DNA from: a virus
Length of the DNA: 40,186 nt
Virus record (IMG/VR): IMGVR_UViG_3300042906_000531
Direction: 5' to 3' (one strand)
The notes below the pieces were generated by a model. It saw nothing but the letters and a program-made list of their open reading frames with translations, made no database searches and was not told the origin of the DNA. The translations under genes and the position numbers were made by a program. The first letter of the stretch is position 1. Every line of letters begins with the position of its first letter. Positions 11,902 to 40,186 of this stretch are shown here, piece after piece.

Positions 11902-12013
11902 TTTAGACTGATACAGTTGTAATCGCAAGGGATACCCCGACGGGGGGAAAAGCGGACTCATCACCCGCCTGCCCTTTGCTCCTTCAGTGATGACTACCTT
12001 GATGGAGGTTCGC

Positions 12014-12452: not shown

Positions 12453-12463
<11 letters not shown>
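12014..12463 (+). CDS. HNH-motif / zinc-finger protein
   Basis: YLDPRWQKKRLQALEFYGFSCILCGEDEKTLHVHHKQY...LCAECHLQSH (CxxC...HH...CxxCH). GTG 12014 lies 5 nt after GGAGG; the ORF-track start at 11987 has no RBS. Confidence 0.65.
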
Positions 12464-13063
<600 letters not shown>

Positions 13064-13064
<1 letters not shown>

Positions 13065-15473: not shown

Positions 15474-15808
15474 GTCTTACAAGACTTCAGAAGCAGGCAA
15501 AGATTGATCGTGGATTAGCCTGTCTAAAGTACATGCAAAAGCGAATCAACCCGGTGACAGTGAAAGAGCTGGCCGAGAAGATGAAGATAAGTCCGAAGTT
15601 GATCCAAAACGCGTTGATTCCTTTGTTAGCTGAGGGCAAGATCACAAGAAGGCTGCTTTCACATCAGTCATCGGTTGCTAAAAAGATTGGCAGGGCATAC
15701 GGTTATAACGCAGTCGAAATCAAGTTACAAAACAGAAACAAACCTTTCCTATGGAATAACCCTTTTGGAATTCAACATGAAAAAACAAGAACCGAAACAA
15801 GAGCGTGA
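15470..15808 (+). CDS. Putative winged-helix DNA-binding protein (112 aa)
   Basis: VTVKELAEKMKISPKLIQNALIPLLAEGKITRR looks like a wHTH. ATGA coupling to the upstream gene. Confidence 0.55.
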   Translation: MSLTRLQKQAKIDRGLACLKYMQKRINPVTVKELAEKMKISPKLIQNALIPLLAEGKITRRLLSHQSSVAKKIGRAYGYNAVEIKLQNRNKPFLWNNPFGIQHEKTRTETRA

Positions 15809-15962
15809 TTGGGTCAAGGTGTATCTTTTCGAGAAGATCACTATTGTTCCCCATTACGTCAAAAAGAACGTGTTTGTGCTTCCCGGTGGGCGTGAGATCG
15901 ACGAAGAAACATTAGTGGACGCTGGCGCATTTCAAGCAGCGACATATCTATGGCCGAGATAA
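15777..15962 (+). CDS. Hypothetical protein (61 aa)
   Basis: The start is taken at ATG 15777 (MKKQEPKQ...). It overlaps the neighbouring genes at both ends. Confidence 0.5.
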   Translation: MKKQEPKQERDWVKVYLFEKITIVPHYVKKNVFVLPGGREIDEETLVDAGAFQAATYLWPR

Positions 15963-16318
15963 CCTGCAAAACCCATCCAGATGCACCGCATGGCTTTGAC
16001 CGCAACGCTTCACACAACGCTGATCGGTATGTGTGCGAGTGCGAGAACTGGGAACCAAAGCCTGTAGCTCATGTTTATCGAATTGAAACAAACGGCAGGC
16101 CTTGTGTGGCATGGGATGACGCAAGTGAAATTAAGGTCGGCGCAAAACTTTACGCTGCGTCTGGTCAATGGGTCGGGCTTACCAGCGATGACATTCACGA
16201 TGCGTTTTGTCACGCTGAATACGATGCCAATCAGGATTGGAACGATGACCCGGAAGGCTGGTGCAAAGCGTTTGCAAGTTATTTAGAAGCCAAATTAAAG
16301 GAGAAGAACGGTGGATAA
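15950..16318 (+). CDS. Hypothetical protein (122 aa); C-terminus paralogous to that of 17676..18164
   Basis: Ends ...WVGLTSDDIHDAF...YLEAKLKEKNGG, compared with ...WVGLTDEEVMVAAY...FIEAKLKEKNT in the other gene. Confidence 0.7.
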   Translation: MAEITCKTHPDAPHGFDRNASHNADRYVCECENWEPKPVAHVYRIETNGRPCVAWDDASEIKVGAKLYAASGQWVGLTSDDIHDAFCHAEYDANQDWNDDPEGWCKAFASYLEAKLKEKNGG

Positions 16319-16532
16319 AGACGACATTATCAAGATGGCGAAAGAGGCTGGAATTAAACAGGCAATTGAAACTCCACATCTACTGATGGTGCATGAACTT
16401 GAACGCTTCGCCGCACTTGTTGCAGCACATGAGCGTGAGGCGTGTGCGAAGCTGGCAGAGGAGCCTTATGAGTTCACCAGCGAAGAAGCCCACAGAATCG
16501 CATCCGCCATCAGAGCAAGGGGTGAGCAATGA
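16311..16532 (+). CDS. Hypothetical protein (73 aa); paralog of 18161..18412
   Basis: GTG start. DDIIKMAKEA...ELERFAALVAAHEREACAK...AIRARGEQ is shared with the second copy. Confidence 0.75.
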   Translation: MDKDDIIKMAKEAGIKQAIETPHLLMVHELERFAALVAAHEREACAKLAEEPYEFTSEEAHRIASAIRARGEQ

Positions 16533-16762
16533 CACGGGGGGCAGGCATGAAGTGCTGTGACGTTTGCGGCAAAAACACCGACCGCCTCGCTGACCTGCTG
16601 GAGACGCACCAGACGCCTGACATCAAGGAGGTCTGCTACGACTGCGAGAAGGTTTTGAACAAGCACAAGGCTAAGCTCCAATACGTGACCGCGAACCTGC
16701 TGCTGGACTGGTTCAAGCGTTTTATGGAAGAGCGCAAAGCGCAAGCGAAGGGGAAAATATGA
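16529..16762 (+). CDS. Hypothetical Cys-containing protein (77 aa)
   Basis: ATGA coupling. CCDVCG...CYDCEK suggests a possible zinc ribbon. Confidence 0.65.
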   Translation: MTRGAGMKCCDVCGKNTDRLADLLETHQTPDIKEVCYDCEKVLNKHKAKLQYVTANLLLDWFKRFMEERKAQAKGKI

Positions 16763-17040
16763 ACAAGTGGATGCAAAGAGCAATTCAGCAAGGAACGCCA
16801 GAGTTCAAGGCGTACGCTGCGTATGTCACCGAAGCTATGCCAGAAGTGACCCTACCTGTGTTGCGAGATATGTTCAAACACAACGCCAGCATTCGTGAAT
16901 ACAAGGCGCACCACAACGCCCTACGCGCCGCGCTTGCGGAGCGTGAGCCGCAATTAAAGCAACGCGATGGAGGGCGCACCCTCTGTGGTCACTGCGCCGC
17001 GACTGGTGAACCGATCAAACGCGCACACGGCATCAAGTAA
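16759..17040 (+). CDS. Hypothetical protein (93 aa)
   Basis: Coupled start. Contains NALRAALAEREP, encoded by a 35-nt island repeated at 17787..17821. Confidence 0.65.
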   Translation: MNKWMQRAIQQGTPEFKAYAAYVTEAMPEVTLPVLRDMFKHNASIREYKAHHNALRAALAEREPQLKQRDGGRTLCGHCAATGEPIKRAHGIK

Positions 17041-17065
17041 TTTTTAACCAAAGGAGAAAATTGAA

Positions 17066-17380
17066 ATGAGCAACACAATCAACATCAACGGAATCGACTA
17101 CATCCCCGCAGCAGATGCTGTACCCCGCATCACCGGCAACCGCGCCGTGGTGGTCGTGGATCGAGGCTGGATTTTTGCAGGTGATGTCACCCGTCAGAAC
17201 GGCCGCATCCGCCTCGACCGCGCGGTGCATGTATTCCGGTGGGAATCCATCGGGTTCGATGGCGTAATTGCAACCCCCAAGAGCAGCAGAGTGACGCTCA
17301 AGCCTATGCCCAACGGCGTGGACTTGCCCGAGGGCGCAGAGATTTTCTGCGTACCGGTTAACGACCAGTGGGGTCTGTGA
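17066..17380 (+). CDS. Hypothetical protein (104 aa)
   Basis: AAGGAG RBS 8 nt upstream of the ATG. No family recognised. Confidence 0.75.
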   Translation: MSNTININGIDYIPAADAVPRITGNRAVVVVDRGWIFAGDVTRQNGRIRLDRAVHVFRWESIGFDGVIATPKSSRVTLKPMPNGVDLPEGAEIFCVPVNDQWGL

Positions 17381-17679
17381 TGTTCCGGCTTATCGGCAAC
17401 GGCAACGGCAACGGCTACGGCTACGGCTACGGCTGCGGCAACGGCTGCGGCTACGGCGACGGCGACGGCTACGGCGACGGCAACGGCTGCGGCTACGGCG
17501 ACGGCGACGGCAACGGCTACGGCAACGGCAACGGCTACGGCAACGGCTACGGCTGCGGCTACGGCAACGGCTACGGCAACGGCTACGGCAACGGCAACGG
17601 CTACGGCTACGGCGACGGCGACGGCACTGTTAGCGGCAATCCTCGCAGGGTGCGCGGCATCAAGCAGGAGGAAGTATGA
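17380..17679 (+). CDS. Gly-X dipeptide-repeat protein (99 aa; X = Asn/Tyr/Asp/Cys)
   Basis: ATG 17380 overlaps the upstream stop (TGATG) and its own stop overlaps the next start (ATGA). Translation is MFRLI-(GN/GY/GD/GC)x~38-GTVSGNPRRVRGIKQEEV. Confidence 0.7.
   Translation: MFRLIGNGNGNGYGYGYGCGNGCGYGDGDGYGDGNGCGYGDGDGNGYGNGNGYGNGYGCGYGNGYGNGYGNGNGYGYGDGDGTVSGNPRRVRGIKQEEV
17395..17625. repeat. Imperfect hexanucleotide tandem array (GGC-NAC/TGC), about 38.5 units
   Basis: Read directly. Every odd codon is GGC, and every even codon is AAC, TAC, GAC or TGC. Confidence 0.97.
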
Positions 17680-18164
17680 GCAGAGAAGTGATGCAGCAGG
17701 CGCTTGAGGCGTTGGAGACATATCTAACGATGGACACGGTAGAGGAATCGCATCTGCTTGAAGTAGACATTGCGCCAAAAGCCATCAACGCCCTACGCGC
17801 CGCGCTTGCGGAGCCTGAGCCACGCAATCAGTGCGGTGAAACCTGTGAGCGAGCAAAGCTATGTGCAATCTGTACTCGTGGGCTTGAGGAGCCTAAGCAA
17901 AACACTGTGACCTGCGTCTGCGGTGCTGTGTGGGACGGTGAGCAGATGGTTCATGCACCACGAAAGCGTGAATGGGTTGGGCTGACGGATGAGGAAGTGA
18001 TGGTTGCTGCGTATCAGGCTGGGTTTGACATCCACGAAGATTACGACAACGAGGATGACCCAGAAAAATTGTACTGGTGGTCAGCCGATGGCGAAGCGTC
18101 TAACGACTCTTTGTTAAAGCTGCGTGATTTTATTGAAGCCAAATTAAAGGAAAAGAACACATGA
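17676..18164 (+). CDS. Hypothetical Cys-rich protein (162 aa); C-terminus paralogous to 15950..16318
   Basis: CGETCERAKLCAICTRG...CVCG. Also contains the shared INALRAALAEPEP and FIEAKLKEKN segments. Confidence 0.7.
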   Translation: MSREVMQQALEALETYLTMDTVEESHLLEVDIAPKAINALRAALAEPEPRNQCGETCERAKLCAICTRGLEEPKQNTVTCVCGAVWDGEQMVHAPRKREWVGLTDEEVMVAAYQAGFDIHEDYDNEDDPEKLYWWSADGEASNDSLLKLRDFIEAKLKEKNT

Positions 18165-18412
18165 CACGAGACGACATTATCAAGATGGCGAAGGAGGCTA
18201 AATTGCCGTACGAGTACGACACCGGGCGCGTGTTGTATCTGAAAGAACTTGAACGCTTCGCTGCACTTGTTGCAGCACATGAAAGAGAGGCGTGTGCGAA
18301 GGTGTGTGATGAGAAAGTGGACGCTGAATATGCGACAGGGAAGGTTGACCATAATGAAATGGCGTGGACGCAAGCATGTGCAATAGCCATCAGAGCAAGG
18401 GGTGAGCAATGA
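18161..18412 (+). CDS. Hypothetical protein (83 aa); paralog of 16311..16532
   Basis: MTRDDIIKMAKEA...ELERFAALVAAHEREACAK...AIAIRARGEQ. ATGA coupling at both ends. Confidence 0.75.
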   Translation: MTRDDIIKMAKEAKLPYEYDTGRVLYLKELERFAALVAAHEREACAKVCDEKVDAEYATGKVDHNEMAWTQACAIAIRARGEQ

Positions 18413-18720
18413 ACGGCGCTGAAATCCAGAGAATGGCGCATAACCTCGGACTTGTTCACCACACGGATCAAGTCAAATGGTTAGTCCGTCAGATCCTAAA
18501 AAAACACAAACCGCTGACCAAAACCGAGAAGATTTACCTTGCTCACCTTACGCAGCCTTATTCGCTCATCGAGCTATCAAAGCACTTCGGCTGCACCACT
18601 GAAGGCGCAAGGAAGCACCTAAAAGCACTGATGGCAAAAGGTCTTGTCGACAGGGAAACTCGATACAAATGGAGAGAAGGTAGACACGGAGCGTGGGCGT
18701 GGTACTACTTCAAAAAATGA
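18409..18720 (+). CDS. Putative winged-helix (MarR-like) DNA-binding protein (103 aa)
   Basis: YSLIELSKHFGCTTEGARKHLKALMAKGLVDRE is wHTH-like. Confidence 0.55.
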   Translation: MNGAEIQRMAHNLGLVHHTDQVKWLVRQILKKHKPLTKTEKIYLAHLTQPYSLIELSKHFGCTTEGARKHLKALMAKGLVDRETRYKWREGRHGAWAWYYFKK

Positions 18721-18899
18721 AAGACTACACCGCAGGGCATACGGTCTGGATGACACCCAAAGACAAGAAACCACCGCTCGGATCTAAGATGCTTTTACTG
18801 AACCCCGGTGGAGTCTGCGTTATCGGTCATTGGTCAGAGTGGGCGGTAGCGTGGGCTCCGTTGCCTAAAGTACCTGAGCACATAAAGGCGATGTTATGA
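18717..18899 (+). CDS. Hypothetical protein (60 aa)
   Basis: The start is taken at ATG 18717 (ATGA overlap with the upstream stop). Confidence 0.55.
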   Translation: MKDYTAGHTVWMTPKDKKPPLGSKMLLLNPGGVCVIGHWSEWAVAWAPLPKVPEHIKAML

Positions 18900-19171
18900 A
18901 CGACCCAATAAACCCAAAGCATTACAAGTCTCATCCATCAGGCATAGAAGTGATTGAGATTACCGAGCACATGAATTTCTGCTTAGGCAATGCAGTGAAG
19001 TACATCCTACGAGCAGGCTTGAAATCTCAAGATGCAACCGAGGATCTCAAGAAAGCAGTCTGGTACATCAACCGAGAAATCGAAAGGATTAACAATGGAT
19101 CTCAAAAAAGCAGCAAGGCAAGCGTATGTGAACAGTCTGACTCAGGATCTCACGGACTGGGACAGAATTGA
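18896..19171 (+). CDS. DUF3310-family phage protein
   Basis: INPKHYKSHPSGIEVIEITEHMNFCLGNAVKYILRAGLKSQDATEDLKKAVWYINREIERI matches the P.HY...E.I...F..GNA.KY..R...K...EDL.KA.WY pattern. Confidence 0.8.
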   Translation: MNDPINPKHYKSHPSGIEVIEITEHMNFCLGNAVKYILRAGLKSQDATEDLKKAVWYINREIERINNGSQKSSKASVCEQSDSGSHGLGQN

Positions 19172-19280
19172 GCTTCAGTTGGAAGAGCTAGAAGAAATAT
19201 CTGCCGAGCTTGAAGAAAAAAGTAAGGCCCTACTAAAGTCTATAGAAGCATTCAAAAAGGATCTTGATTCCAAATCCTGA
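19095..19280 (+). CDS. Small coiled-coil protein (61 aa)
   Basis: ATG 19095 lies after AAGGA. MDLKKAARQAYVNSLTQDLTDWDRIELQLEELEEISAELEEKSKALLKSIEAFKKDLDSKS. Overlaps the 3' end of the DUF3310 ORF by 77 nt. Confidence 0.5.
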   Translation: MDLKKAARQAYVNSLTQDLTDWDRIELQLEELEEISAELEEKSKALLKSIEAFKKDLDSKS

Positions 19281-19318: not shown

Positions 19319-19345
19319 AGCCCTCGCAATGAGGGCTTTTTTTTA
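19319..19345 (+). terminator. Rho-independent terminator closing the rightward early operon
   Basis: AGCCCTC-gcaat-GAGGGCT, followed by T8. Confidence 0.85.
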
Positions 19346-36869: not shown

Positions 36870-39800
36870 ATGCCAGCATCAATTGTCTTAAGCGCAGTTT
36901 ATGGATCAATGGCCGCTGCCGGAGCTGCATTAGGATCTATTGGTCTTGCAGCTGCGACCTTTGCAATCAACTTTGCGGTTTCCTTTGTCGTTACTCGAGC
37001 TTTTGGTAACAAGCCATCGCAGGCTCAGGATATGGGCGCTAGGCAGCAAATGCCTCCTGCTAACAGTAATTCCATCCCTGTCGTTTATGGCAGCGCGTGG
37101 CTAGGCGGAACCTTTGTCGATGCGGTGCTGACGACCGATCAAAAGACGATGTATTACGTCATAGCCATAAGTTCTATATCGTCGGATGCGTCTGCAACCT
37201 TTACTTATGACACGCAAAAGTTTTACTACGGTGATCGCTTAATCACGTTTGATAATGTAGATCAGACTAAAGTAGTATCCCTGACCGATGGTGCAAGTAA
37301 TGTCGATGACAAGATCTCGGGCAATCTGTACATCAGTCTTTACACATCTACGAATGCTGGCGTTATTACCCCTGTAAACGGAACCGCGCCTAATGTAACA
37401 ATGGGCGGATCTGAGATTCCCGCATCTCTTCGCTGGCCTGCATCTGGCCGTCAGATGAACGGATTAGCGTTTGCAATCGTTAAGCTGAATTACAACGCTG
37501 ACGCAGGCACGACAGGCCTACAACCCATAACGTTTTACTGCACACACCTTCCTAAAGGCGGATCTGTTTGTAAGCCCGGAGATGCGTGGTACGACTACAT
37601 GACAGACGAGCGTTACGGCGCAGGCATGACTGGTCTCGTGGATTCTGCAAGCGCGACAGCTCTTAACACTTACTCGGATCAGACCATTACCTATACGCCT
37701 TCTGGAGGCGGATCGGCCACACAAGCCCGATACAGAATTAACGGTGTCATAGACACGGGAAGGCCGGTACTAGATAACGTTGAGAAGATGTTGGAGTGCT
37801 CCGATAGTTGGATGGCTTACAACGCCGCTTCTGGACTTTGGTCGATCATTATCAACAAGGCCGATAGTTCTACATTCTCGTTCAACGATTCAAACTTGAT
37901 CGGTGAGATCAGAGTCTCTGCAATCGACATCAATCAGCAGATCAATCAGATACAAATTGAGTTCCCATCTAAAGACAATCGGGATCAGCCCGATATGGTA
38001 TTTCTTGAGACACCTGCGGGCCTAAGGTATCCCAACGAACCTGATAACAGACAAACCACCAGCCTAGATTTTTGCAACAACTCTGTGCAAGCCCAGTATC
38101 TCGGTAATAGAAGGCTAGAGCAGGCACGAGAAGATCTCATCGTCACCATTACCTCGACATATCCGGGCATACAAGTCGATGCTGGTGATGTGGTTGACAT
38201 TACAAACGCAGACTACGGATGGACAAACAAGCTCTTCCGGGTCATGAAGGTATCCGAGGCTACGGTAGATGACGGGAACTTAGGAGCCACATTAGAACTA
38301 TCTGAATACAACGCTGACGTTTATGACGACTCAAGTATTACAGCATTCGCTCCTGCGCCTAACTCTAGCCTGCCGTCTCCGACTTACTTCTCGAGCCTAA
38401 ATGCTCCGGTCTTAGGCGATCTTGCACCTTCTGCTGCACCTCCGACATTCTCTGCCACTTGCACGATGCCAACTGTAGGCCGAGTCACTACCGTCACATT
38501 GTTCTACACGAGTTCTGCGACTCCTTCTGCAACAGACTGGAAAGTCATCAGCTCTCAAATCCTGAGCAACGGATCGACGTTTGCAAACTTAAGTACCGTT
38601 AAGTTTGAGAATCTGCAAATAGCTGGTGGAACGTGGTACTTTGCTTTTTCTGTTTCCAACGAGTCAGCTAAGAGCGCACTGTCGGCTACGAGTGCAGCAT
38701 TTGTGTGGTCGCCTACAGGAATGGCGGGACCTACGGGGCCTACAGGCAGTCAGGGGCCAACGGGAGATCAGGGCCCTACAGGAAGTCAGGGACCGACCGG
38801 AAGTTCTGGCCCGACAGGCGGATCTGGGCTCATAGGTATTGCCTTTATTAACGCTTATCTTGTTCAGTCACAAACCGCATCCACACCTTCTTTCTCGACA
38901 CCGACATCTGGCTCTGCGGTTCCTGCTGGATGGTCGTCTACGGTTCCCGGCATTTCTATCGGTCAGGTGCTTTGGTATCTACAGGGAAGATACAACGCCA
39001 ACGCAGTGACCGTAGATGGAGTGCCTGCTAATTCAACAGCGTGGACAGGGCCTATAGCTGCCTCTGTGTTTCAGAGCATCCTTTCTGACAACTATAACGG
39101 CCCCATTCCTCCGACATCTTCCAGTTATGGAACGGCTGGTTGGTATCTCGATAAGACCTCTGGTGGCCTATATGCGTCTGCTGCGTATCTCAGAGGAGAG
39201 ATTGCTTCTGGTACTGGATCAGACCGTATCACGATCAACAACTCCAACAATCTTGAGATTCAGGGCTACACGACTTACGGTGGAACGACTCCGTGGTTCT
39301 CGATGGGTGTATCTGGTTACGACACAAAGATCCTGAGTGTCAATGCTGTTAACTACCCTTATGCGGATTGTGCGGTTCAGTTCTTAGGCGGTGCCTCTGG
39401 TCAATTTACACTCAAGGTTCCCAATGGCGCAGGCTCTCCGTTAGTTAAGGGCGCTTACTTCAGTGCATTTGCAGCCGAGGCGCTTGTCGTTGAAAGAACA
39501 TCTTCCCTAACAAACGGAAACGGCTCTACGTTTTCTAATGCCAATGGTTATGCAATCAGGGTTTTGACTGGCGGCATCGCTTCTAATGTTTATTACTTCC
39601 CGAATACCTCAGCAGGCTTCACGCAGATCCAAAACATCCCCAACAACACGACGACCTTTTTGAGAGGCGACGGTTCGTGGGCTTCAGGCATTGCCGGACC
39701 TACGGGGCCGACGGGCCCGCAAGGTATACAAGGCGATCAGGGGATACAAGGAAATCCCGGACCTACTGGCCCGCAGGGTGCTACTGGCCCAGCATCAACG

Positions 39801-40186
39801 GTTCCCGGCCCGACAGGCCCGCAGGGTCCTACCGGCGCAGCGTCTACCGTTCCGGGGCCAACAGGCCCGCAGGGAGCTACAGGTCCGACGGGAGCTACGC
39901 CTTCGCTGCCTGATCCGTGGACAAACTCAATTGCTCTTGCTTCCGGTAAGACGGCCTCACTGAGAGGAACATCCTTTGCAGACAACTCGTGGGTCTTTAC
40001 GAACAGCACCGGTTCCTATGCAACTGGAGCTAACATCGTTCTTTACACGAGCAGTGCCTCACAAACGTGGACATTCAACTCCAACGGTAATGCTTATGCT
40101 GATGCTGGTTCGTGGGTTAACTCTTCAGACAGAAACGTCAAAGAGAACATCCAGAACTACAGTGGTGGACTTCAGAAGATCCTTGC
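36870..40186 (+). CDS. Central tail fibre / host-specificity protein (gpJ / GTA g15-like), 5' part; continues at 1..344 (1177 aa total)
   Basis: ATG 36870. The frame has no stop to the window end, which is why it is missing from the ORF track. The hydrophobic Gly/Ala N-terminus is [45 protein letters not shown] is typical of the Phage-tail_3 host-specificity domain. Collagen-like GPTG blocks lie near 38719..38832 and 39691..39900. Confidence 0.88.
40060..40186. repeat. Right copy of exact 127-nt terminal duplication
   Basis: Identical to nt 1..127. Confidence 0.97.

Follow-up and report, generated by a model that had tools for sequence, protein, structure and literature searches.

A 40,186-nucleotide (nt) stretch of viral DNA (IMG/VR record IMGVR_UViG_3300042906_000531; here called the window, meaning the whole stretch that was analyzed) carries at positions 17380 to 17679 a gene, here gene B, whose product alternates glycine with a second residue, X, over 38 consecutive dipeptides. 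On sequence grounds, gene B is very probably a genuine protein-coding gene within a two-gene module formed with the overlapping upstream gene, here gene A. Tailed phages that infect Proteobacteria and Actinobacteria carry this A-B module widely, and in them it sits among early and replication genes. Comparison of homologues indicates that selection acts on the B protein, whose composition and register are conserved, not a motif. The best explanation overall, which we put forward tentatively, is a coding A-B module in which B may serve as a disordered scaffold working with A.

Gene B encodes an uninterrupted Gly-X array

The product of gene B, as translated from the window, is MFRLI-(G-[NYDC])38-G-TVSGNPRRVRGIKQEEV, with a total length of 99 amino acids (aa) (Table 1). 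The X codons of its array are TAC (14), AAC (13), GAC (7), and TGC (4), so that Tyr, Asn, and Asp make up 34 of the 38 X residues and the remaining 4 are Cys. Tandem Repeats Finder located the strongest repeat of the window here (17394 to 17625, period 6, 38.7 copies, score 296) and returned only one Gly-X array of this kind in the window. A preliminary description, made from the sequence without database searches, had set out the array, its codons, and its overlaps with the flanking genes, and it proved exact in every detail. In the other genes of the phage, GGC makes up 39% of the Gly codons and NAC makes up 47 to 58% of the Tyr, Asn, and Asp codons; the uniform codon choice of the array would arise by chance with a P value of ~2e-26, a figure in which the repeat itself is not yet counted.

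Collapsed repeats in the assembly had been named as a possible source of such an array. The window array is not an assembly artifact, because two independent metagenome assemblies (loci L001 and L002) hold the same gene, with arrays that differ by one 6-nt unit plus point changes. Homologous arrays are also present in the finished genomes of cultured phages.

The stop codon of gene A (TGA, 17378 to 17380) shares one base with the start codon of gene B, and the junction sequence in the window, TGGGGTCTGTGATG, has TGGGG followed by the stop/start overlap. Across the surveyed relatives described below, the junction is T(G/A)ATG in 77 of 92 loci; with a further 8 that have ATGA or GTGA, an overlap is present in 85/92. 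TGGGG always precedes the A/B overlap, and residues W102 and G103 of A are invariant. These junctions indicate that translation of B would be coupled to the termination of A. The proposal of a translationally coupled, protein-coding open reading frame (ORF) is thus strongly supported by the overlap in 85/92 loci, by synonymous change in the leader and tail, and by a dipeptide register that outlives codon switches.

AlphaFold2 (AF2) predicted no fold for the gene B product (predicted local distance difference test [pLDDT] score of 33 throughout), and neither a signal peptide nor a double-glycine leader was found in it. Searches of Pfam, PHROGs, NCBIfam, and PADLOC gave sub-threshold compositional matches only, with no confident family. 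The motif strings of the module and the domain families DUF6948 and DUF7666, both of which are met below, were not found in the literature searched, in agreement with the initial view that no known phage protein is like gene B. The window leader has Leu (CTT) where the family consensus has Pro; the near-identical gene in L001 has CCT (Pro) at this codon, and Leu is found again in L045.

Table 1. Positions of the A-B module and its junctions in the window, and counterparts in named phages
Genome	Feature	Position	Strand	Description
Window	Gene A	17066-17380	+	104-aa small protein, all-beta in the AF2 model; upstream partner of gene B
Window	Coupling junction	17370-17382	+	GGGG from the invariant Trp-Gly codons of gene A (Shine-Dalgarno-like), then TGATG
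Window	Gene B	17380-17679	+	99 codons/99 aa; Gly-X dipeptide-repeat protein; ATG 17380-17382, TGA 17677-17679
Window	Leader M-F-R-L-I-G	17380-17397	+	Family consensus M-x(0-4)-F-[KR]-P-[IV]-G
Window	Array	17395-17625	+	77 codons: 39 GGC alternating with 38 X codons
Window	Tail T-V-S-G-N-P-R-R-V-R-G-I-K-Q-E-E-V	17626-17676	+	Fits basic family consensus G-T-[VA]-S-x-N-x-R-x-R-R-K
Window	ATGA overlap	17676-17679	+	Gene B stop TGA (17677-17679) on ATG (17676-17678) of next ORF, 17676-18164
Eggerthella phage PMBT5	A-like gp37; B gp38	B, L163 2788-3114		GenBank label of B, "adsorption protein"
Rheinheimera phage Barba (115 isolates)	A-like gp018; B gp017			
Rhodobacter phage RcapNL	A-like gp47; B gp46			B just right of CI-like repressor
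Manatee Spring phage MW202613	A-like gene present; B	B, L288 2049-2363		GenBank label of B, "lamprin"

The A-B module recurs across tailed phages

Relatives of gene A were found in 274 IMG/VR loci and in 2,841 homologue clusters of a large protein collection, all of them unnamed (253 clusters at 50% identity). The surroundings of A were surveyed in the best 80 of the 274 IMG/VR loci and in 11 loci from bacterial genomes. By automated count, B lies directly downstream of 81 of 92 A genes (91 loci plus the window; one locus, L059, has two A genes). The other 11 A genes comprise contig ends at which the leader of B is still visible, lower-Gly variants missed by the filter, and two cases with B upstream; for all 92 A genes in the 91 loci, either B is adjacent or the contig end is reached. 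Gene A is the sole gene common to all 91 loci, and the next commonest neighbor is present in 20. Therefore, the A-B pair is a self-contained module in mosaic surroundings.

The linkage was also tested in reverse: IMG/VR was scanned for GGC-NAC arrays by exact DNA pattern, with matches in at least 120 contigs. Among the matches listed, 73 array ORFs had enough flanking sequence, and an A-like gene stands beside 65 of these (directly upstream in 60 and directly downstream in 5), leaving 8 with neither. Gly-X ORFs had been suggested as worth searching for in the early-gene context of other metagenomic phages, and such ORFs do recur in metagenomic phages beside A-like genes. The linkage holds for divergent branches of A, with A identity down to ~25%, and for hosts of different phyla. 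It also holds in other architectures, in which DUF6948 is followed by an array and a C-terminal domain or a DUF7666-array gene is followed by an A-like gene. The pair in the window shows every feature of the A-coupled Gly-X family, namely, adjacency on the same strand, the overlap, the leader, the array, and the tail.

In the array-anchored IMG/VR loci (L164 to L283, among the matches listed), 36 of 128 array ORFs are at most 100 nt from the locus end. This suggests that metagenome assemblies tend to break at Gly-X repeats, and therefore the family is probably under-counted and often truncated. Two to four tandem copies of Gly-X genes, each with its own leader and tail, were seen in L023 (3483 to 4294), L044 (4334 to 4819), L165 (2328 to 3445), L210, L243, and L257; the tandem copies of B number three in L023 and two in L044.

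Composition and register are conserved in gene B products

The B family was described from 68 distinct complete A-coupled homologues with lengths of 61 to 164 aa (median, 91). Their composition is dominated by Gly (40%), Tyr (18.5%), Asn (9.7%), and Asp (8.9%), which together account for 77% of residues. The leader motif M-x(0-4)-F-[KR]-P-[IV]-G was found in 56 of the 68. The homologues have a median net charge of -4, and their last 12 residues have a median charge of +3, with +2 or more in 74%. The order of X residues within arrays is close to random, as Tyr is followed by Asp 254 times and Asp by Tyr 250 times, and the corresponding counts for Tyr and Asn are 281 and 278; no higher period was seen. 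These equal frequencies indicate that there is no directional motif in the array. Among the homologues, B keeps a short leader, an unbroken Gly-X alternation in which X is Tyr, Asn, or Asp (in decreasing order of frequency), and usually a basic tail; order and length are free to vary. Such a sequence, biased in composition, predicted to be disordered, and independent of residue order, resembles prion-like and phase-separating low-complexity domains in these respects.

Several features of the coding sequence argue that it is the protein that is under selection. The Gly-X register is kept whichever Gly codon is used, as in L064 (GGG in 42 of 43), L037 (GGA in 19 of 41), and L044 (GGT in 16 of 53), and TAT, AAT, and GAT also occur among the X codons. 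His was counted only 24 times among the X residues versus 1165 for Tyr, 541 for Asn, and 490 for Asp, i.e., it is 20 to 50 times rarer, though its codon CAC is also an NAC codon. Stop codons were not found in the arrays. At the nucleotide level, 26 different versions of the leader were seen, and each of its codons varies synonymously; all four Pro codons and three Ile codons are used, and in the tail the codons for Thr, Val, and Ser vary, with Ser drawn from both of its codon boxes. The survival of register and composition through codon switches, the avoidance of His, and the synonymous variation of the leader and tail place selection at the level of the B protein.

Gly-X arrays were also found in other architectures, either after a "D..AGAC.DGV" domain or DUF7666, before unannotated C-terminal domains, or as an internal linker between globular domains. 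The globular domains that are joined to arrays in these proteins gave no Pfam match. One unannotated C-terminal domain of ~150 to 170 aa recurs after arrays in L186, L190, L200, L205, and L263, and also in L216 and the array protein P0072. It is recognizable by the pattern "IDGV.T.I...AHGET..EA...YDWHHRLTGSC..GR..FA.DHG" and has no Pfam match; in L216, it forms the end of a DUF7666-array-C-terminal domain architecture.

Gene A is a divergent relative of DUF6948

No match to gene A of the window was found in Pfam, PHROG, NCBIfam, or PADLOC. In particular, the window protein falls short of the Pfam model of DUF6948 (PF22253), with no match at E < 0.1 and the gathering threshold of 27 bits not reached. 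A and DUF6948 share several features. Both are small proteins of 85 to 105 aa from phages and prophages with the core ...VVV..G.[FI].G...NG..L..A...[FY]RW..G...., and true DUF6948 genes, like gene A, lie directly upstream of, and overlap, Gly-X array genes. A divergent branch of A (...RGW..G...NA..[IV]R.WGTTKGLGEL...) that also precedes Gly-X genes has a weak DUF6948 match (18.8 bits, E = 0.0018). The array proteins P0072 and P0009, which were found by protein similarity, have an overlapping upstream gene that is DUF6948 by Pfam annotation, and comparison of the A alignment with one such DUF6948 protein by hhalign gave an E value of 1.5e-4 and a probability of 52%. The iterated A profile, in turn, scores Pfam-annotated DUF6948 proteins at 49.5 and 27.7 bits. 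By these sequence and profile similarities, A belongs to the DUF6948 superfamily, as one of its divergent members. Neither a function nor a structure is known for DUF6948, and therefore the link gives A a family name but no explanation.

AF2 models A as an all-beta protein that has five long strands (pLDDT 64). A Foldseek search of the PDB with this model returned Sm/LSm barrels as the top matches; the best E value, 0.38, is not significant, and we take the resemblance as a lead only. No PDB relative of A was found by sequence-profile search, and a structure search of BFVD with A returned uncharacterized homologues only. In the representative library, the proteins P0197 and P0199 contain two gene A domains in tandem within single polypeptides. 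These tandem fusions hint that A probably works as a dimer or oligomer.

Named phages carry the module, which is transcribed early in Barba18A

Several named phages carry the module (Table 1); in the cultured ones (Barba, RcapNL, and PMBT5), the pair either lacks annotation or is wrongly annotated. The labels "adsorption protein" and "lamprin" given to two of their B genes are misannotations, evidently derived from low-complexity similarity and without experimental support. In PMBT5, ORF37/38 lie between the genes for the single-stranded DNA-binding protein (SSB) and a DnaD-like initiator, and they are absent from the six virion proteins identified by mass spectrometry (PMC9394477). The PMBT5 paper (PMC9394477) does not discuss ORF37/38 and nowhere mentions an adsorption function. 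A tblastn search of the phage collection with the PMBT5 repeat protein gave no match, as its sequence is taken out by the low-complexity filter.

Transcription has been followed in one homologous pair, that of the phage Barba18A, in which the transcripts of gp018 and gp017 are highest at the earliest time point (12.5 to 16 min), with log counts per million of 13.0 and 10.1, respectively (PMC9305737, Table S2). The cluster that holds these two genes was assigned by the authors mainly to replication and nucleotide metabolism (PMC9305737). Barba gp017 and gp018 are therefore transcribed early, the evidence being for transcription only and not for translation. The two genes are not discussed in the Barba genomics paper.

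A possible scaffold function for B

We consider it possible, on the strength of composition and linkage, that B is a disordered multivalent partner of A. B would be an intrinsically disordered sticker-spacer polypeptide in which Tyr acts as the sticker and Gly as the spacer, with an acidic body and a basic tail. A would dock on the leader of B or on the repeats themselves, and in the replication phase A and B together would build either a higher-order assembly (a condensate, gel, or fiber) or a trap with multiple binding sites, whose valency would depend on the length of the array. An analogy for such a pair is offered by SH3, Tudor, and Sm domains, small beta-barrels that read low-complexity tails, and by the Gly-rich linker of SSB.

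A more specific version, which is speculative and rather unlikely as it stands, would make A-B a two-component phase-separating or gel-forming phage system, with A as a small beta-barrel reader and B as a multivalent scaffold, slippage being the means of tuning its valency. Together they would then form an early-infection compartment or trap that either concentrates the phage replication machinery or sequesters a host (defense) factor, and the hypervariability of the array would reflect an arms race or a tuning of the material state. In a further variant, the rigid set of codons read by G34/Q34 tRNAs would itself be part of the function.

Several observations weigh against a scaffold role for B. 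A purely protein-level role does not predict rigid GGC/NNC codons regardless of host GC content. The AF2 model of A is of low confidence (pLDDT 64), and its resemblance to Sm-like barrels is not significant (Foldseek E value of 0.38). Fusions of A to B were not found among the best 150 representatives, which include A-A tandems only. Divergent B branches lack the basic tail and have different leaders, and therefore the sole universal feature is an array beside an A-like gene. Lastly, the transcript counts of Barba gp017 are ~8-fold below those of gp018, in a table that is not length normalized and for repeats that map poorly.

Array turnover and alternative explanations

Near-identical genomes show how the array changes. 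L001 shares with the window a recently exchanged segment (16995 to 18068, 98.2% identity), in which the 231-nt array has ~13 substitutions and one 6-nt indel, versus 1 change in ~850 nt of flank. Nearly all of the changes in the array fall at the first base of the X codon. L002, with 99.5% identity to the window over 4.6 kb, carries an additional GGCAAC unit and a single Tyr-to-Ser change. Eleven cultured Barba isolates have four alleles; two of these arose independently by insertion of GGCTAC at separate sites, and the 1,496 nt of flanking sequence show 0 mismatches. The array is thus hypervariable through slippage and shuffling of 6-nt units, and the in-frame slippage in 6-nt steps that had been anticipated from the window alone is seen among its relatives. 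Concerted evolution accounts for the homogeneity within arrays, such as the all-GGG array of L064 and the 36-nt block repeat of L037, but not for the use of the same unit everywhere. A diversity-generating retroelement was considered as a source of the variation and rejected: there is a single array, no reverse transcriptase family is among the Pfam hits, and the changes are nearly all at codon position 1 or are indels of whole units.

The very fast turnover of length and sequence, the lack of constraint on order, and a codon homogeneity typical of concerted evolution would also fit a tolerated selfish microsatellite in a short dispensable peptide gene, with A as the sole functional part. This explanation seems improbable to us, as the array is kept beside A-like genes down to ~25% A identity and in hosts of different phyla, the X residues are a restricted set with His avoided and no stops, and the lengths are bounded at 61 to 164 aa. 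Moreover, extra copies of B occur in tandem, and the leader and tail are under purifying selection.

B could alternatively be the precursor of a peptide made by the ribosome and modified after translation (a RiPP), with Y-G-D and Y-G-N cross-linked (as in triceptide-like cyclophanes between an aromatic residue at position i and Asn/Asp at i+2) or otherwise modified to yield a bioactive or structural peptide. Precursors of the GrrA/OscA1 type (TIGR04260) resemble B in being short bacterial peptides with Gly-rich repeats and aromatic-X-Asn/Asp triplets. The array protein P0007 scores 23.4 bits against this cyclophane RiPP family, and the short conserved leader of B could serve as a recognition sequence. 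Triceptide maturases work on aromatic-X-Asn/Asp motifs, Tyr-x-Asp included (PMC11002830). However, the score of P0007 is under the TIGR04260 cutoff of 31, and B of the window has no match. The Pfam hits to the 44 window ORFs include no radical-SAM/SPASM, YcaO, or lanthipeptide enzyme, and the sole conserved neighbor of B is the 100-aa gene A; in contrast to GrrA/OscA1, B lies in a phage early operon without a maturase in the window or the module. Y-G-N and Y-G-D are no commoner than the reverse order, as would not be expected of a directional motif; the leader has just 5 to 10 residues; and arrays also form internal linkers between globular domains. A RiPP precursor is quite improbable on this evidence.

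The codon use of the arrays suggests a different kind of explanation. Across the 80 IMG/VR loci, GGC accounts for 92% of Gly codons, and an equal share of X codons (92%) has C as the third base. The same rigidity is found in PMBT5 gp38 (GGC in 44 of 46 and TAC in 21 of 21) and in a prophage-like contig with a GC content of 39%, and the array of Barba gp017 has a GC content of 68% within a locus of 39%. One possibility is that the nucleic acid is the functional unit, with (GGCNAC)n acting as iterons, an origin repeat, a recombination hotspot, or a structured RNA and the ORF merely tolerated; the origin of phage lambda, which lies inside gene O, is a precedent. The extreme uniformity of codons (P ~ 2e-26), its persistence in a myovirus and a prophage-like contig, each with a GC content of 39%, as well as in an actinobacterial phage, and the location of the element in replication modules would all fit such a role. 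On the other hand, synonymous change goes along with amino acid-level conservation of the frame, start coupling, leader, and tail, arrays written in GGG, GGA, or GGT exist, and His (CAC) is avoided. A period of 6 bp does not suit the helical phasing of iterons. The array is less self-complementary than shuffled sequences (z scores of +2.0 for RNA and +8.2 for DNA), no G-quadruplex was predicted in it, and it has no Rfam match; the regularly spaced GG tract pointed out in the preliminary description is present but has no structural consequence by these measures. There is little probability, in our judgment, that the nucleic acid rather than the protein is the functional unit.

Another possibility is a translation device, in which ~77 codons for G34/Q34 tRNAs (Gly-GCC, Tyr, Asn, and Asp) would serve as a tRNA or queuosine sensor, a sponge, a timer, or an anticodon nuclease probe, read out through the coupled translation of downstream genes. 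Tyr, Asn, and Asp are three of the four queuosine-decoded amino acids, His being the fourth, and enzymes of the colicin E5 type have precisely the tRNAs for these four amino acids (Tyr, His, Asn, and Asp) as their substrates. The prevalence of NNC codons whatever the genome GC content, the ATGA coupling of the window gene B to the next gene, and the irrelevance of residue order are all in line with this idea. It is nonetheless very unlikely, as His is avoided, arrays are fused to folded domains elsewhere, and the window lacks genes for tRNAs or for queuosine. Nor do all B genes show coupling to a downstream gene, since Barba gp017 and RcapNL gp46 are each followed by an intergenic gap, and the NNC bias would be trivial if all units descend from GGC-NAC through changes at position 1 or 2.

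A virion or adsorption structural protein, for which the GenBank labels are the sole direct support, or a secreted Gly-rich antimicrobial peptide or microcin, a comparison made in the preliminary description, is scarcely credible, because the weak compositional matches to keratin-associated, sulfur-globule, and TrAA12 profiles are all under the curated cutoffs, the gene lies in an early/replication operon far from structural genes and its Barba homologue is early, not late, the PMBT5 protein is not among the virion proteins found by mass spectrometry in a paper silent on such a function, and neither a signal peptide nor a double-glycine leader was found in B, nor any exporter, immunity, or maturase gene in the window.

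Genomic surroundings in the window

Gene B sits inside a long rightward early/replication operon. No promoter-like or terminator-like sites were found on the + strand from 15800 to 19263, and the first terminator-like site on that strand is at 19319 to 19337. The window is a complete-looking 40-kb genome of the siphovirus type, seemingly circularly permuted. It encodes portal, TerL, and capsid proteins, collagen-like and lectin-like fiber proteins, a holin and a lysin, ERF, YqaJ, and SSB, a DnaB-like helicase, and MazG, together with DUF3310, a Dps-like protein, and HNH. The functions recognized in it are all of the phage structural, lysis, recombination, and replication kinds. A near-identity search with a 3.5-kb region found no close phage relative in GenBank.

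A diverged duplicate of a two-gene cassette (15950 to 16532 and 17676 to 18412, + strand) brackets the segment that holds the A-B module. Its second genes (16311 to 16532 and 18161 to 18412) are 53% identical over 81 aa; its first genes (15950 to 16318 and 17676 to 18164) are 36% identical over the C-terminal 63 aa. At the nucleotide level, 75% identity was seen over 179 nt. An int-alpA RNA (Rfam RF02996) was found at 11925 to 11993 (+ strand; 44.1 bits, with the gathering score at 35.8), where it separates the leftward ERF/SSB/YqaJ genes from the rightward replication operon, and an (AG)17 dinucleotide run occupies 12758 to 12792 inside a replication-initiator-like ORF (12453 to 13064). Collagen-like G-X-Y ORFs are present at 900 to 2879 and ~38700 to 40000 (both on the + strand), with Tandem Repeats Finder periods of 18, 27, 36, 48, and 54 and a Pfam Collagen match of 8e-33, and a Laminin_G_3/ConA-like lectin domain was found elsewhere in the window (3e-61). 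These collagen-like and lectin-like ORFs probably encode tail fibers.

Relation to known systems and implications

Gly/Tyr-rich disordered proteins are a known kind. Keratin-associated proteins (PF11759), sulfur globule proteins (PF17228), and plant glycine-rich proteins share a low-complexity composition of Gly and Tyr with B, but they are extracellular or structural, lack a strict dipeptide register, and are not homologous to it, whereas B has an exact register and abundant Asn and Asp and is an early phage gene. FUS-type and other prion-like domains and the Gly-rich linker of SSB resemble B in that they are disordered, rich in Tyr, Gly, and Asn, governed by composition over order, and associated with nucleic acid metabolism. 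Phage replication proteins, Erf and SSB among them, are reported to contain prion-like domains (PMC5694896). B differs from prion-like domains in its lack of Gln/Ser richness, its perfect two-residue period, and its occurrence as a stand-alone protein with a dedicated partner gene.

Two further comparisons concern the repeat. Silk fibroin, (Gly-Ala/Ser/Tyr)n, also has a strict Gly-X alternation, which places Gly and X on opposite faces of a beta-strand, and it is likewise encoded by slippage-prone hexanucleotides with biased codons. Silk is a huge, secreted, eukaryotic protein in which X is mostly Ala or Ser, and B has no confident AF2 fold. The simple-sequence contingency loci of bacteria and phages change in length by replication slippage, as B does between near-identical genomes. 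Unlike those loci, B has a 6-nt unit that keeps the frame, and slippage therefore alters length and composition without on/off switching. What we have not found described is the combination of a strict Gly-(Y/N/D) array, a rigid hexanucleotide, and a dedicated DUF6948-like partner, conserved across phages of several bacterial phyla.

Overall, thousands of phage genomes appear to carry a conserved, early-expressed A-B pair, in hosts that include Alpha-, Beta-, and Gammaproteobacteria as well as an actinobacterium of the gut, and B is among the most extreme viral low-complexity proteins known. Culturable systems are at hand in Rheinheimera BAL341 with Barba18A, Rhodobacter capsulatus SB1003 with RcapNL, and Eggerthella lenta with PMBT5. 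If B assembles with A, the pair would be a minimal and genetically tractable bacterial sticker-spacer scaffold with a dedicated partner and a valency adjusted by slippage; if the codon set matters instead, the array would be a new kind of translation-level device.

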